Part shown: piece by piece, positions 1 to 4,300 of the stretch
Layout of the letters: every line of letters begins with the position of its first letter
How positions within the stretch are numbered: the first letter of the stretch is position 1
Virus record (IMG/VR): IMGVR_UViG_3300029459_000083
Direction: 5' to 3' (one strand)
DNA from: a virus
Lineage: Duplodnaviria > Heunggongvirae > Uroviricota > Caudoviricetes
Length of the DNA: 4,300 nt
Translations under genes and position numbers: made by a program
Notes under the pieces: generated by a model
What the model was told of the DNA's origin: nothing
Seen by the model: only the letters and a program-made list of their open reading frames with translations
Databases searched by the model: none

Positions 1-2685
1 TACCATATCCGCGGTCGTATCATCCAGGTGCCGTCAAACTATGACCCGGAAAAACGCACGTACAGTGGTATCTGGGACGGCAGTCTGAAACCGGCATACA
101 GCAACAACCCGGCCTGGTGCCTGTGGGACATGCTGACTCACCCGCGCTACGGCATGGGAAAACGTCTGGGGGCGGCGGATGTGGACAAGTGGGCGCTGTA
201 TGCCATCGGGCAGTACTGCGATCAGACGGTCCCGGATGGTTTCGGGGGGACCGAGCCGCGGATGACCTTTAATGCGTACCTGGCACAACAGCGTAAGGCG
301 TGGGACGTTCTCAGTGATTTCTGCTCGGCGATGCGCTGTATGCCGGTATGGAACGGCCAGACGCTGACGTTCGTTCAGGACCGCCCGTCGGATGTGGTGT
401 GGCCGTACACCAACAGCGATGTGGTGGTGGATGATAACGGCGTGGGATTCCGCTACAGCTTCAGCGCCCTGAAGGACCGCCACACGGCGGTGGAGGTGAA
501 TTACACCGACCCGCAGAACGGCTGGCAGACCTCCACGGAACTGGTGGAAGACCCGGAAGCCATACTGCGCTACGGACGCAACCTGCTGAAGATGGATGCG
601 TTCGGCTGTACCAGCCGCGGTCAGGCCCACCGTGCCGGACTGTGGGTGATAAAGACCGGACTGCTGGAAACGCAGACGGTGGATTTCACGCTCGGGTCAC
701 AGGGGCTGCGGCACACGCCCGGAGACATCATTGAAATCTGTGATAACGACTACGCCGGAACCCTGACCGGCGGACGTATCCTGTCCATCGACGCCGCCAG
801 CCGTACACTGACGCTGGACCGTGAGGTGACACTGCCGGAGACCGGTACCGCCACGGTGAACCTGATTAACGGCAGCGGTAAGCCGGTGAGTGTGGACATC
901 ACCGCACACCCCGCGCCGGACCGGATACAGGTCAGTACCCTGCCTGATGGCGTGGCGACATACGGTGTGTGGGGACTCTCCCTGCCGTCACTGCGTCGTC
1001 GCCTGTTCCGTTGTGTCGCCATCCGGGAAAACACGGATGGCACCTTTGCCATCACGGCAGTGCAGCACGTACCGGAAAAAGAAGCCATCGTGGATAACGG
1101 GGCCAGCTTTGAGCCGCAGTCAGGCACCCTGAACAGCGTTATTCCTCCGGCAGTGCAGCACCTCACGGTGGAGGTGAGTGCCACAGACGGCCAGTATCTG
1201 GCGCAGGCGAAATGGGACACGCCGCGGGTGGTGAAAGGTGTGCGCTTCAGTCTGCGTCTGACCAGCGGAAGGGGGGATGACAGCCGCCTGGTGACCACCG
1301 CCATCACCGCAGACACGGCGCACCGTTTCAGTGGTCTGCCGCCCGGGGAATACACCCTGACGGTCAGGGCGATTAACAGCTACGGCCAGCAGGGCGAACC
1401 TGCCACCACCACGTTCCGGATTGACGCCCCGGCAGCGCCTGCCACCATTGAACTGATACCGGGGTATTTTCAGATAACGGCGGTCCCGAAACTGGCTGTA
1501 TATGACCCGACGGTACAGTTTGAATTCTGGTTTTCGGAACAGCAGATTGCGGATATCAGGCAGGTTGAAACCTCCGCCCGCTATCTTGGCACGGCGCTGT
1601 ACTGGATAGCTGCCAGTATCAATATCAAACCGGGCCATGATTATTACTTTTATATCCGCAGTGTCAACCTGGTGGGCAAATCGGCATTTGTGGAGGCCGT
1701 CGGCCGGGCCAGCGATGATGCCGAAGGCTACCTGAATTTTTACAAAGGGCTGATTAATAAAACACATCTCGGTAAAGAGCTGCTGGAAAACGCTGAACTG
1801 ACGGAAGATAACGCCAGCAGACTGGATGAGTTTTCGAAAGAGTGGAAAGACGCTAACGATAAATGGAATGCCATGTGGGGCGTCAGAATTGAGCAGACCG
1901 AAGACGGTAAGCATTATGTCGCTGGGCTTGGCCTCAGCATGGAGGACACGGAGGACGGTAAACTGAGCCAGTTTCTGGTTGCCGCTAACCGTATCGCGTT
2001 TATTGACCCGGCAAACGGGAATGAAACGCCGATGTTTGTGGCGCAGGGCAATCAGATATTCATGAACGACGTGTTCCTGAAATACCTGACGGCTCCCACC
2101 ATTACCAGCGGCGGTAATCCTCCGGCATTTTCCCTGACACCGGACGGGCGGCTGACGGCGAAAAATGCTGATATCAGCGGTAACGTGAATGCGAATTCCG
2201 GGACGCTCAACAACGTCACGATTAACGAGAACTGTCGGGTTCTGGGAAAATTGTCCGCGAACCAGATTGAAGGCGATCTCGTTAAAACAGTGGGCAAAGC
2301 TTTCCCCCGGGACTCCCGTGCACCGGAGCGGTGGCCATCAGGGACCATTACCGTCATGGTTTATGACGATCAGCCGTTTGACCGGCAGATTGTTATTCCG
2401 GCGGTGGCATTCAGTGGCGCTAAGCATGAGAGAGAGCATACTGATATTTACTCCTCATGCCGTCTGATAGTGCGGAAAAACGGTGCTGAAATTTATAACC
2501 GTACCGCGCTGGATAATACGCTGATTTACAGTGGCGTTATTGATATGCCTGCCGGTCACGGTCACATGACGCTGGAGTTTTCGGTGTCAGCATGGCTGAT
2601 GAATAACTGGTATCCCACAGCAAGTATCAGCGATTTGCTGGTTGTGGTGATGAAGAAAGCCACCGCAGGCATCAGTATCAGCTGA
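1..2685 (+). CDS. J: Tail-tip host-specificity protein J (central tail fibre), 5'-partial; C-terminal ~894 codons present
   Basis: Open frame runs from base 1 (codons [27 protein letters not shown]...) to TGA at 2683-2685. The ORF track's start at 28 is an internal GTG; there is no stop in 1-27, so the gene begins upstream of the window. The translation closely resembles what I recall of lambda gpJ ([69 protein letters not shown]). Two fibronectin-III-like segments are visible (~1144-1440 and ~1441-1720). GC content falls from about 60% in the 5' part to about 42-50% in the 3' part. Confidence 0.93.
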
Positions 2686-2703: not shown

Positions 2704-2730
2704 GGGCGCCAGAAATGGCGCCTTTTTTAT
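2704..2730 (+). terminator. Rho-independent terminator downstream of J
   Basis: GGCGCC (2705-2710), loop AGAAAT, GGCGCC (2717-2722) forms a perfect GC-rich hairpin, followed directly by TTTTTT (2723-2728). It starts 19 nt after the J stop codon. Confidence 0.6.
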
Positions 2731-2741
2731 TGCAGAAAAGC

Positions 2742-2747
2742 GAGAGG
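2742..2747 (+). promoter_or_regulatory. Ribosome-binding site for lom
   Basis: GAGAGG lies 5 nt upstream of the ATG at 2753. Confidence 0.55.
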
Positions 2748-2752
2748 TAATT

Positions 2753-2824
2753 ATGCGTAAAGTTTGTGCAGCCATTTTGTCCGCAGCCATCTGTCTGTCC
2801 GTATCCGGTGCGCCTGCATGGGCG
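2753..2824 (+). other. Sec signal peptide of Lom (24 aa, predicted cleavage after AWA)
   Basis: MRK, then a hydrophobic core AAILSAAICLSV, then SGAPAWA / SEHQ: an n-h-c layout with an A-x-A signal-peptidase-I motif. Confidence 0.7.
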
Positions 2825-3356
2825 TCTGAACATCAGTCCACACTGAGCGCGGGGTATCTTCATGCCCGTACGAACGCCCCCGGCAGCGATAATCTGAACG
2901 GGATTAACGTGAAATACCGNNNNNNNNNNNNNNNNNNNNNNNNNNNNNNNNNNNNNNNNNNNNNNNNNNNNNNNNNNTGAGGATGAGCAAAAAACGCGCT
3001 ACAGAGATACCCGCTGGCATGAAGATTCCGTGCGTAACCGCTGGTTCAGCGTGATGGCGGGGCCGTCTGTACGCGTGAATGAATGGTTCAGCGCGTATGC
3101 GATGGCGGGTGTGGCTTACAGCCGTGTGTCGACTTTCTCCGGTGATTATCTTCGCGTAACTGACAACAAGGGGAAAACGCACGACGTGCTGACCGGAAGT
3201 GATGACGCTCGCCACAGCAACACGTCTCTGGCGTGGGGGGCTGGCGTGCAGTTTAACCCGGCCGAATCCGTGGCCGTTGATGTCGCTTATGAAGGCTCCG
3301 GCAGTGGCGACTGGCGCACTGACGGTTTCATTGTGGGTGTCGGTTATAAATTCTGA
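2753..3356 (+). CDS. lom: Outer-membrane protein Lom (Ail/Lom/PagC/OmpX-family beta-barrel), interrupted by an assembly gap
   Basis: ATG at 2753 with an upstream RBS. The N-terminal 55 codons (MRKVCAAILSAAICLSVSGAPAWASEHQSTLSAGYLHARTNAPGSDNLNGINVKY) and, after the N-run, 125 codons (EDEQKTRYRDTRWHEDSVRNRWFSVMAGPSVRVNEWFSAYAMAGVAYSRV...GDWRTDGFIVGVGYKF, stop 3354-3356) both closely match lambda Lom as I recall it. The ORF track splits the gene into 2753-2980 and 3030-3356 only because of the gap; the pre-gap frame (mod 3 = 2) and post-gap frame (mod 3 = 0) differ, so the gap length is nominal. The C-terminal ...GYKF ends in an aromatic residue, as is typical of beta-barrel outer-membrane proteins. 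Confidence 0.88.
2920..2977. other. Assembly/scaffold gap (58 N) inside lom
   Basis: A run of 58 'n' characters. The flanking lom reading frames are out of register, and the TGA at 2978-2980 in the upstream frame is an artefact. Confidence 0.99.
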
Positions 3357-3383
3357 TTAGCCAGGTAACACAGAGTTATGACA

Positions 3384-3409
3384 GCCCGCCGGTTCTGGTG
3401 GGCTTTTTT
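3384..3409 (+). terminator. Rho-independent terminator downstream of lom
   Basis: GCCCGCC (3384-3390), loop GGTTCT, GGTGGGC (3397-3403) gives a 7-bp stem with one G-U pair, followed by TTTTTT (3404-3409). It starts 28 nt after the lom stop codon. Confidence 0.5.
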
Positions 3410-3418
3410 GTGGGGGGA
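3410..3418 (+). promoter_or_regulatory. G-rich Shine-Dalgarno region for stf
   Basis: GTGGGGGGA sits immediately upstream of the ATG at 3421; the purine-rich GGGGGA portion can act as an SD, though the spacing is short. Confidence 0.4.
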
Positions 3419-3420
3419 AT

Positions 3421-4300
3421 ATGTCAGTACAGATTTCAGGTGTGCTGAAGGATGGTACAGGAAAACCGGTACCGAACTGCACCATAGAGCTGAAAGCCGT
3501 GAGAACCAGCGAGACGGTGATAGTCACCACGGTGGCGGAGTGTCAGCCAGGGGAAACAGGCAGTTACACCATGCAGGTTGAGCCGGGGCGTTATCGTGTG
3601 ACCCTGTGCGTGGAAGGCCGTCAGCCGGCATGCGCTGGCGAGATTGATGTCATGGCAGACGACGAGCCGGGCACACTGAATGCGTTTCTGCTGCGTGAGC
3701 AGGACAGCACTTATTACCCTGAATCGCTGAAAAAACTGGAAGACGCGGCGGATGCGGCTGTCAGCAGGGCAGAGGAAGCGGCGAGGAAAGCGGAAACGGC
3801 GGTTGGGCCACAGGGACAGAAAGGCGACACCGGGGCAACGGGTCCGCAGGGACAGAAGGGAGACAAGGGTGATACAGGCCCACAGGGGCCAAAGGGTGAT
3901 AAAGGAGACAAGGGCGATAAGGGGGATACCGGCCCGAAAGGTGAGCAGGGCGACCCGGGAGGTCCACAGGGACCGAAGGGCGACAAGGGGGATACAGGAG
4001 CTGCAGGCCCGGCAGGACCGCAGGGACCGAAAGGGGATACAGGAGCCACAGGTCCGGCAGGACCGCAGGGACCGAAAGGGGATACAGGAGCCGCAGGCCC
4101 GGCAGGACCGCAGGGACCGAAGGGAGATACGGGAGCTGCAGGCCCGGCAGGACCACAGGGTCCAAAAGGGGATACGGGAGACACAGGCCCGGCAGGACCA
4201 CAGGGACCGTCAGGAAGTCCTGACAGCGGACTGTTTGGTGTCGGTTCTTTTGTCCTTGCGGCGTATTATGCGACGAGTTATTCGGGGGATATGGCACCGG
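3421..4300 (+). CDS. stf: Side tail fibre protein (Stf-like) with a collagen-like Gly-X-Y domain, 3'-partial
   Basis: ATG at 3421 opens a frame that stays open to the window end; it is absent from the ORF track because no stop is reached. The N-terminus [26 protein letters not shown]... resembles the lambda Stf (orf-401) N-terminus [26 protein letters not shown]... as I recall it. The 64-nt spacing after lom matches the lambda layout. An Ala/charge-rich linker ([23 protein letters not shown]) precedes about 45 uninterrupted G-X-Y triplets ([80 protein letters not shown]...), after which a non-collagenous segment begins ([28 protein letters not shown]). Confidence 0.88.
3805..4215 (+). repeat. 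Collagen-like triplet repeat tract (about 45 G-X-Y triplets, 9-bp GGN-CCN-NNN periodicity)
   Basis: Reading in the stf frame gives Gly at every third residue from codon 3805 to codon 4213, with Pro, Gln, Lys, Asp and Thr in the X and Y positions. Confidence 0.9.
3991..4209 (+). repeat. 45-bp direct tandem repeat, about 4.9 copies, in-frame (encodes [15 protein letters not shown])
   Basis: Units GATACAGGAGCTGCAGGCCCGGCAGGACCGCAGGGACCGAAAGGG begin at 3991, 4036, 4081, 4126 and 4171 (the last partial), each differing from its neighbours by only a few substitutions. Confidence 0.85.

Follow-up and report, generated by a model that had tools for sequence, protein, structure and literature searches.

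Does the lom gene that lies between the tail-tip gene J and the side-tail-fibre gene stf of a lambda-like prophage form a self-contained element with a terminator at either end, and, if not, where does the unit that comes and goes begin and stop? This question is raised by a stretch of 4,300 nucleotides of tailed-phage DNA, here called the window, for which an earlier analysis, made from the letters alone (the sequence-only reading), had proposed a moron cassette composed of terminator, ribosome-binding site, gene and terminator, inserted between J and stf. Our answer, to which we assign a probability of about 0.75, is that window positions 2732-3409 represent an accessory-gene module, that of lom, in a lambda-like Escherichia coli prophage, promoter-less and placed behind a separate terminator that belongs to J and to the phage backbone.

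The window contains three genes, as judged from the list of open reading frames and from Pfam matches, all on the plus strand: the 3' part (2.66 kb) of the tail-tip/host-specificity gene J at 28-2685, the window starting within this gene; lom at 2753-3356; and the 5' part of stf at 3421-4300, which runs past the window end. The J product carries the domains Phage-tail_3, Ig_J, Ig_J_second, Phage_Tail_Tip and Ig_GpJ_C, its gene ending at 2685 in the last of these, while the stf product starts with the prophage tail-fibre N-terminal domain phage_tail_N (4.5e-39), followed by Collagen (2.5e-21), the collagen-like part being made of Gly-X-Y repeats, with a 45-nt unit repeated 4.9 times at 3988-4209. 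The only two intergenic gaps, of 67 nt between J and lom and of 64 nt between lom and stf, account for approximately 3% of the window. Prophages of E. coli, by the hundreds, and Stx-converting phages contain DNA nearly identical to the window, the best match (98.7%) being the chromosome of a pig E. coli, where the three genes are annotated as gpJ, Ail/Lom family protein and prophage tail fibre. None of the loci retrieved for comparison matches the window exactly in its spacers.

That the gene between J and stf encodes an outer-membrane protein of the Ail/Lom family, as the sequence-only reading had it, is borne out by the Pfam matches and by the gene order. Positions 2920-2977 of lom are occupied by 58 N, with the readable parts on either side in different frames, and both of these fragments match Ail_Lom (PF06316), at 3e-28 and 6e-76, over profile positions 1-55 and 75-199, respectively; their scores, 99.4 and 255.1 bits, are well clear of the cut-off of 23. 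The closest relative, which is full-length, scores 417 bits over profile positions 1-199 (E = 1e-125), and the structure of lambda Lom (PDB 9wso_C) is matched at 5e-50. The protein is an eight-stranded beta-barrel. As read from the translation, the protein begins with a signal peptide, MRKVCAAILSAAICLSVSGAPAWA|SE, continuing SEHQ, and it ends in ...GFIVGVGYKF, a beta-signal with a final aromatic residue. The protein clearly belongs to the Ail/Lom family. The masked stretch measures 54 nt in all 107 of the 107 relatives, versus 58 N in the window; either its length has not been preserved by the mask, or lom carries a +4 frameshift, and the lom of the window could be frameshifted.

A hairpin with a T-tract was found on both flanks of lom, at 2704-2731 and at 3383-3409, where the sequence-only reading had placed them. 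The upstream stem, GGGCGCCA/TGGCGCCT at 2704-2723, has eight pairs, six of them G-C, and a GAAA loop, and it is followed by TTTTTTATT at 2723-2731; the downstream stem, at 3383-3404, has nine pairs, also with six G-C, and is followed by TTTTTT at 3404-3409. Folded as RNA, the segments 2700-2732 and 3380-3412 are both stable, at -15.7 kcal/mol each (z = -4.4 and z = -3.0, respectively), with none of 200 shuffles as stable in either case. Both elements fit the anatomy of intrinsic (Rho-independent) terminators, i.e., a G+C-rich stem-loop and a T-run, on the coding strand and downstream of a stop codon, and both are directional, the minus strand having no T-run after either stem. The total number of terminator-like matches in the window, 6 versus 3.0 +/- 1.6 in shuffles, is unremarkable; these two are set apart by how strong they are and by where they lie, as they carry six T each and are the top two matches, one per intergenic gap. 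An Rfam scan of the window (E <= 1) recognized no known RNA family at threshold, and the two sub-threshold chance matches, ncr1175 and Qrr, both overlap the downstream terminator.

Which of these elements belongs to lom can be read from relatives that do not carry the gene. A search with a chimeric query, the end of J joined to the start of stf, recovered phages in which stf comes directly after J, and with the junctions found in IMG/VR there are 64 lom-less loci, all of which retain the J stop codon, the upstream hairpin and TTTTTTATT. In the four annotated lom-less phages (4A7, ev087, PhiR57_1, and PhiR47_2) the order in the spacer is the stop codon of J, ATTTTATAACCCAGATAC, GGGCGCCAGAAATGGCGCC, TTTTTTATT, TGTGGAGTGAAT and the ATG of stf, so that the stf ribosome-binding site, TGTGGAGTGAAT, abuts the J T-tract; its counterpart in the window is GTGGGGGGAAT, at 3410-3420. 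The exact empty junction is found in 60 IMG/VR stretches, with the stf start directly after it in 60 of the 60, and the occupied junction, with lom, in at least 120. When an empty locus (L162) is compared to an occupied one (L274), the final ~800 nt of J are 98.2% identical and the initial ~600 nt of stf 98.8%, and the homology spans the entire upstream terminator, ending right after TTTTTTATT. The presence/absence unit thus delimited is 2732-3409, comprising a leader of 21 nt (2732-2752) with a strong ribosome-binding site (Shine-Dalgarno sequence GAGAGGT, at 2742-2748), lom itself, a 3'UTR (3357-3382) and a single terminator (3383-3409), with both junctions falling in T-runs. As the lom-less relatives keep the upstream terminator, and as its variants track the J-end type, this element, at 2704-2731, most probably belongs to the J/backbone module and not to the lom module, and the proposed cassette of terminator, ribosome-binding site, gene and terminator has to be given up in its upstream part. 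A terminator after J is not a general rule, HK97 being without a canonical one at this position. All of the 60 IMG/VR empty sites show a single junction and a single stf type, a uniformity that is partly enforced by the search pattern, and they may derive from one event. A side observation is that the lom unit has the appearance of a complete transcript, from the 21-nt leader to the T-run, joined exactly at the end of the T-run of another terminator.

The same division is suggested by a comparative set of 155 lom loci that fall into three Lom classes, with protein identities ranging from 46 to 62% overall (~46% between the window type and the lambda type, ~61% between the third class and lambda Lom). 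Nearly all of the loci that have J upstream possess a hairpin with a T-tract at a distance of 27-32 nt from the lom ATG. The sequence of its stem varies according to the type of J end, and unrelated stems are present at the same spot in lambda and in a Citrobacter homologue. The lom leader is homologous in all three classes and in Citrobacter. Among the 14 distinct alignable variants of the upstream hairpin found in relatives, compensatory changes are seen at three stem pairs, 96% of the cells are paired, and the covariation score is reached by none of 500 shuffles, showing that the structure of the J hairpin is under selection; the T-tract is invariant in all 14. The downstream hairpin shows one-sided G-C/G-U changes only, with no compensatory change across the lom loci; this variation speaks neither for nor against a structure, and the element appears simply conserved. 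In approximately 30 of the 155 lom loci, and in the Citrobacter homologue, the lom-stf hairpin has no T-run, and a canonical terminator downstream of lom thus appears to be common, not universal. No other segment of the region is as conserved as the lom-stf spacer with its near-invariant 3'UTR (92% nucleotide identity between classes, compared to 61-64% for the lom bodies), as one would expect at a mosaic joint or in a 3'UTR under constraint.

Base composition does not delimit the lom module. It had been pointed out that lom has a lower GC content than J has in its 5' part, and numerically this is correct (56.6 versus 62.2%), but as a mark of the module it fails: the 3' part of J is at 51.3% and stf at 57.9-61.6%, and the sole sharp change, from 62 to 51%, is found inside J, near position 1450. 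GC content is uninformative as to the lom unit because the drop falls within J. The GC3 values of lom and of its neighbors are likewise comparable.

As to the transcription of lom, the earlier remark that no convincing sigma-70 promoter is visible holds. A promoter scan of the whole window detected no sigma-70 promoter on the plus strand, a position-weight scan of 2253-2770 gave nothing better than 5.6 bits, and in the position-weight scan no candidate shared its position among the window, lambda and a locus of the third class (L095). The distance from the J T-tract to the lom ATG is 21 nt, leaving no room for a promoter, and no sigma-E or PhoP-box motif was recognized by eye. Some individual candidates can be dismissed. 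TATAAC at 2690-2695, if taken for a -10 element, has no -35 element, reads TAAAAC in some lom-less variants (and TATTAA in the 61% class) and has no counterpart in lambda. In the pair TTTATT-17-AATTAT the -10 element overlaps the start codon, and such a promoter cannot make lom mRNA. A near-consensus promoter on the minus strand, at 1667-1640, is absent from 399 of 399 loci and is most likely due to chance.

The published evidence on lysogenic expression of lom is mixed. The gene was reported to be transcribed in lambda lysogens (PMC1151598; PMC7067206), and in phi24B its expression was reported to be uncoupled from induction (PMC3342100). It went undetected in an array study under other growth conditions, where the authors suggest possible repression (PMC2147009). 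On the mapping of a promoter for lom, or of terminators in the late operon, our literature search returned a single statement, that the lom promoter is little known (PMC2147009); Osterhout et al. are cited on this point. The gene is non-essential for plaque formation by lambda (PMC10695390). By analogy with lambda, and only by this, the lysogen considered here might display Lom.

What follows on termination, on read-through and on the origin of lom transcription in a lysogen is inferred, and the scheme is modeled on lambda. In lambda late transcription, Q antitermination overrides terminators, and tandem late-operon terminators (t'J1-4) were reportedly described beyond J by Luk and Szybalski in 1983. 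In the lytic cycle, both terminators would be read through by RNA polymerase that has started at the late promoter and been modified by Q, and lom would be made as part of a J-lom-stf late transcript. In the lysogen, the J terminator would block stray transcription into lom, and the lom terminator would keep a lom transcript out of stf. As the J terminator precedes a promoter-less lom, lysogenic expression would require either leakage through this terminator or a weak or activator-dependent promoter not recognizable by consensus. The insulator role of the upstream hairpin may not be general, as the hairpin in lambda is weak, at approximately -8 kcal/mol alone (centroid fold of the 61-nt spacer, z = -0.5).

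A number of other readings need to be weighed against a promoter-less lom unit joined to a resident J terminator. One is the original one, of the two terminators, the ribosome-binding site and lom having moved together as an insulated cassette. Both terminators do flank lom tightly, and for the lambda-type hairpin no empty site was found, 18 of the 18 lambda-type loci carrying lom. However, this reading is largely refuted by the 64 lom-less loci, in which the upstream hairpin and T-tract are kept and joined to stf, while the form of the hairpin goes with the 3' end of J and not with the lom allele, and the homology between empty and occupied sites includes the whole of the upstream terminator; we regard it as very improbable. 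A different matter is the polarity of the event, as the word "inserted" in the earlier proposal presumes a direction that cannot be told from a deletion in the lom-less lineage. Possibly, if at somewhat less than even odds, lom was originally present between J and stf, and lom-less phages arose by a deletion between the two T-tracts through microhomology, in which case "moron insertion" has the wrong polarity. Three diverged classes, along with Citrobacter, have the gene at the same site behind a homologous leader, with a near-identical 3'UTR in the three E. coli classes, which together suggests long residence; the one junction sequence and one stf N-terminus at 60 of the 60 IMG/VR empty sites fit one event, and both junctions are in T-runs. 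With three diverged alleles and a single type of empty junction, one T-run deletion would seem at least as compatible with the data as an insertion. On the other hand, the same data would fit a single insertion at an empty site with later exchange of alleles, and the junction being fixed by the search pattern introduces a bias toward uniformity. The choice would, in any case, alter only the history of the module, not its nature or its working.

The remaining alternatives concern function. One holds that the scans have missed a lom promoter, activator-dependent or dependent on an alternative sigma factor and situated in the 3' end of J, with the J hairpin serving as an attenuator that leaks, or as an element of the 5'UTR, instead of as a plain terminator, and lysogenic expression being regulated. 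The reports of transcription in lambda lysogens and of uncoupling in phi24B would agree with this, as would the suggestion by the authors of the array study that non-detection may reflect repression, and the weakness of the lambda hairpin. Nevertheless, we consider such a promoter unlikely, given that the last 500 nt before lom offer no candidate above 5.6 bits and none conserved in position among the window, lambda and L095, that identity among the three classes at the 3' end of J is no more than 64-67%, making a promoter common to them improbable there, and that the lom of phi24B resides in a different genomic context. It is also conceivable, if distinctly doubtful, that the hairpins serve mainly as stabilizers of RNA 3' ends or as processing barriers in the late transcript, or else as linkers for module exchange, termination in the lysogen being incidental. 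The contrast between the conserved lom-stf spacer and the diverged lom bodies is typical of a mosaic joint, the hairpin is kept without its T-run in some loci, and termination would be overridden anyway under Q antitermination. Full canonical terminator anatomy, including the 6-T runs, is nevertheless present in most loci for both elements, the T-tract after the J hairpin does not vary, and these roles are not mutually exclusive. A more far-reaching proposal, highly speculative and with very little probability in our estimate, would be either that accessory genes are captured at terminator T-tracts (through microhomology, template switching or an RNA-mediated copy) or that the display of Lom in the lysogen is controlled by how far the J terminator is read through under given conditions. 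The data are explained equally well by ordinary recombination at T-runs, illegitimate or homologous, and by leaky transcription.

Overall, the reading we favor is that of a leader, lom and a terminator as the unit that comes and goes, promoter-less and directly behind J's own terminator. As a gene, lom is a textbook case of lysogenic conversion, already listed among moron products, and the locus itself adds nothing new in this respect. The corrected boundary does sharpen the long-standing question of how lom is transcribed in the lysogen, and it carries a caution, that flanking terminators or a difference in GC content are no proof of a "self-contained" element.

The closest known system is the J-lom-stf (orf-401) region of lambda itself (NC_001416, 18903-19650), which has the same gene order as the window and similar spacers (61 and 64 nt in lambda), a hairpin with a T-tract 29 nt before the lom ATG and a leader homologous to that of the window, and in which the segment that runs from the 3' end of lom through its 3'UTR and terminator to the start of stf is almost identical to its counterpart in the window (92% for the spacer). 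The differences are in the Lom protein, with only ~46% identity to the Lom of the window, in another type of J end and in a much weaker hairpin (CGTCCG/CGGGCG, TTTTATT). Another example is phi24B, a Shiga-toxin phage with a lom orthologue, for which a small RNA, 24B_1, has been claimed just downstream (PMC4426718). This phage, however, is short-tailed, and its spacer of 428 nt has no predicted intrinsic terminator, while the 64-nt spacer of the window holds the terminator only; the differing context speaks against a 24B_1 micro-RNA downstream of the window lom. The chromosomal genes ail, ompX, pagC and rck encode proteins of the same family and fold as Lom (PF06316; OmpX and Ail structures matched at ~1e-19). 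One of these, ail of Yersinia pestis (L391), resembles lom in having a canonical terminator downstream, but it differs in its long AT-rich upstream regulatory region, with no terminator 30 nt before the start, and protein identity is ~31%.

Lambda Lom is explicitly named as a moron-encoded protein (PMC3594210; Cumby, Davidson & Maxwell 2012), and a moron in the Juhala/Hendrix definition consists of a promoter, a gene and a factor-independent terminator, with a deviant composition (PMC3594210); the gene is moreover one that the repressed prophage expresses, that benefits the host and that the phage can do without. The match claimed by the sequence-only reading holds for a part of this definition. 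Unlike the definition, the lom unit shows no promoter of its own by consensus scans, which can miss activator-dependent or alternative-sigma promoters inside J; its GC content is not unlike that of the surrounding genes, lying between those of its neighbors; and it is directly preceded by a resident terminator. What does agree is its presence in some phages and its absence from the same site in close relatives (64 empty versus at least 120 occupied), as well as a downstream terminator of its own, at 3383-3409, with six T and inside the presence/absence unit. Similar observations apply to the morons of HK97 and HK022, one example being HK97 gp22, upstream of J (Juhala et al. 2000; PMC3594210): like the lom unit, these are extra DNA in the late/tail operon, each with one accessory gene, its own factor-independent terminator and a product that acts in the host envelope.

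The 64-nt spacer between lom and stf is better conserved than either of the coding regions that flank it: across the three Lom classes compared, represented by the window (3357-3420) and by comparison loci L002 (4587-4650) and L095 (2125-2188), it retains 92% identity, whereas the lom bodies of the same classes are just 61-64% identical. A different spacer is found in about 30 of the 155 lom loci compared (the L016 type) and in the Citrobacter homologue L368. There it forms a long hairpin that carries no T-run, and lom in these phages and in Citrobacter is therefore without a canonical downstream terminator; in the L016-type loci stf apparently starts at a TTG adjoining the spacer hairpin.

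Variation is also seen on the other side of lom, at the J terminator. One example is presented by three loci (L015, L047, and L056) in which, approximately 50 nt 5' of lom, the terminator loop is inverted (AGAAAT to ATTTCT) between palindromic GGCGCC arms; the entire hairpin has been flipped in these loci, with the structure retained. Another example is locus L138, in which, approximately 45 nt 5' of lom, unrelated sequence stands in place of J and of the upstream hairpin's left arm. As the breakpoint falls within the hairpin stem, it suggests a rearrangement or a mobile-element junction.

As to the composition contrast, credited to lom by the sequence-only reading, its true source is a sharp drop in GC inside J, from 62 to 51% at approximately 1400-1550, with GC3 falling from 0.76 to 0.60 across the same step, suggestive of a mosaic recombination joint within J. 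A near-consensus (11/12) sigma-70-like site, TTGACA-16-AATAAT, is also present antisense in J (1640-1667, minus strand). However, this pattern is missing from all of the 399 fetched loci, and thus the site is probably a chance occurrence.

Within lom, positions 2920-2977 are represented by 58 N, versus 54 nt at this position in all of the relatives examined (107/107), and the readable parts on either side do not share a reading frame. The mismatch is due either to a mask that is not length-preserving or to a +4 frameshift in the window's copy of lom. A solved structure is available for Lom, PDB 9wso (206 aa, two chains in the entry), deposited as 'Outer membrane protein lom', whose chain C matches at 5e-50; our literature search found no paper describing it. 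Among the genome contig matches, loci L370-L383, from Neobacillus, Kitasatospora, Pseudomonas, Shewanella, Bradyrhizobium, and others, are identical to lambda Lom in their match to the window-type query (44-45% identity), several of them on contigs of about 1x coverage, and almost certainly represent contamination of these assemblies with lambda control DNA.

Downstream, stf (3421-4300, plus strand) carries collagen-like Gly-X-Y repeats at 3808-4209, including a 45-nt unit in 4.9 copies (89% match). The match to Pfam Collagen is at 2.5e-21, and all matches to the NCBIfam collagen-like adhesin models are under their respective cut-offs.

In HK97 (L400), J and stf are separated by a spacer of 207 nt, which lacks a canonical terminator and contains (L400 5050-5159) a perfect 17-bp inverted repeat, its arms, GGAAGGTGCGAATAAGT and ACTTATTCGCACCTTCC, lying approximately 76 nt apart.
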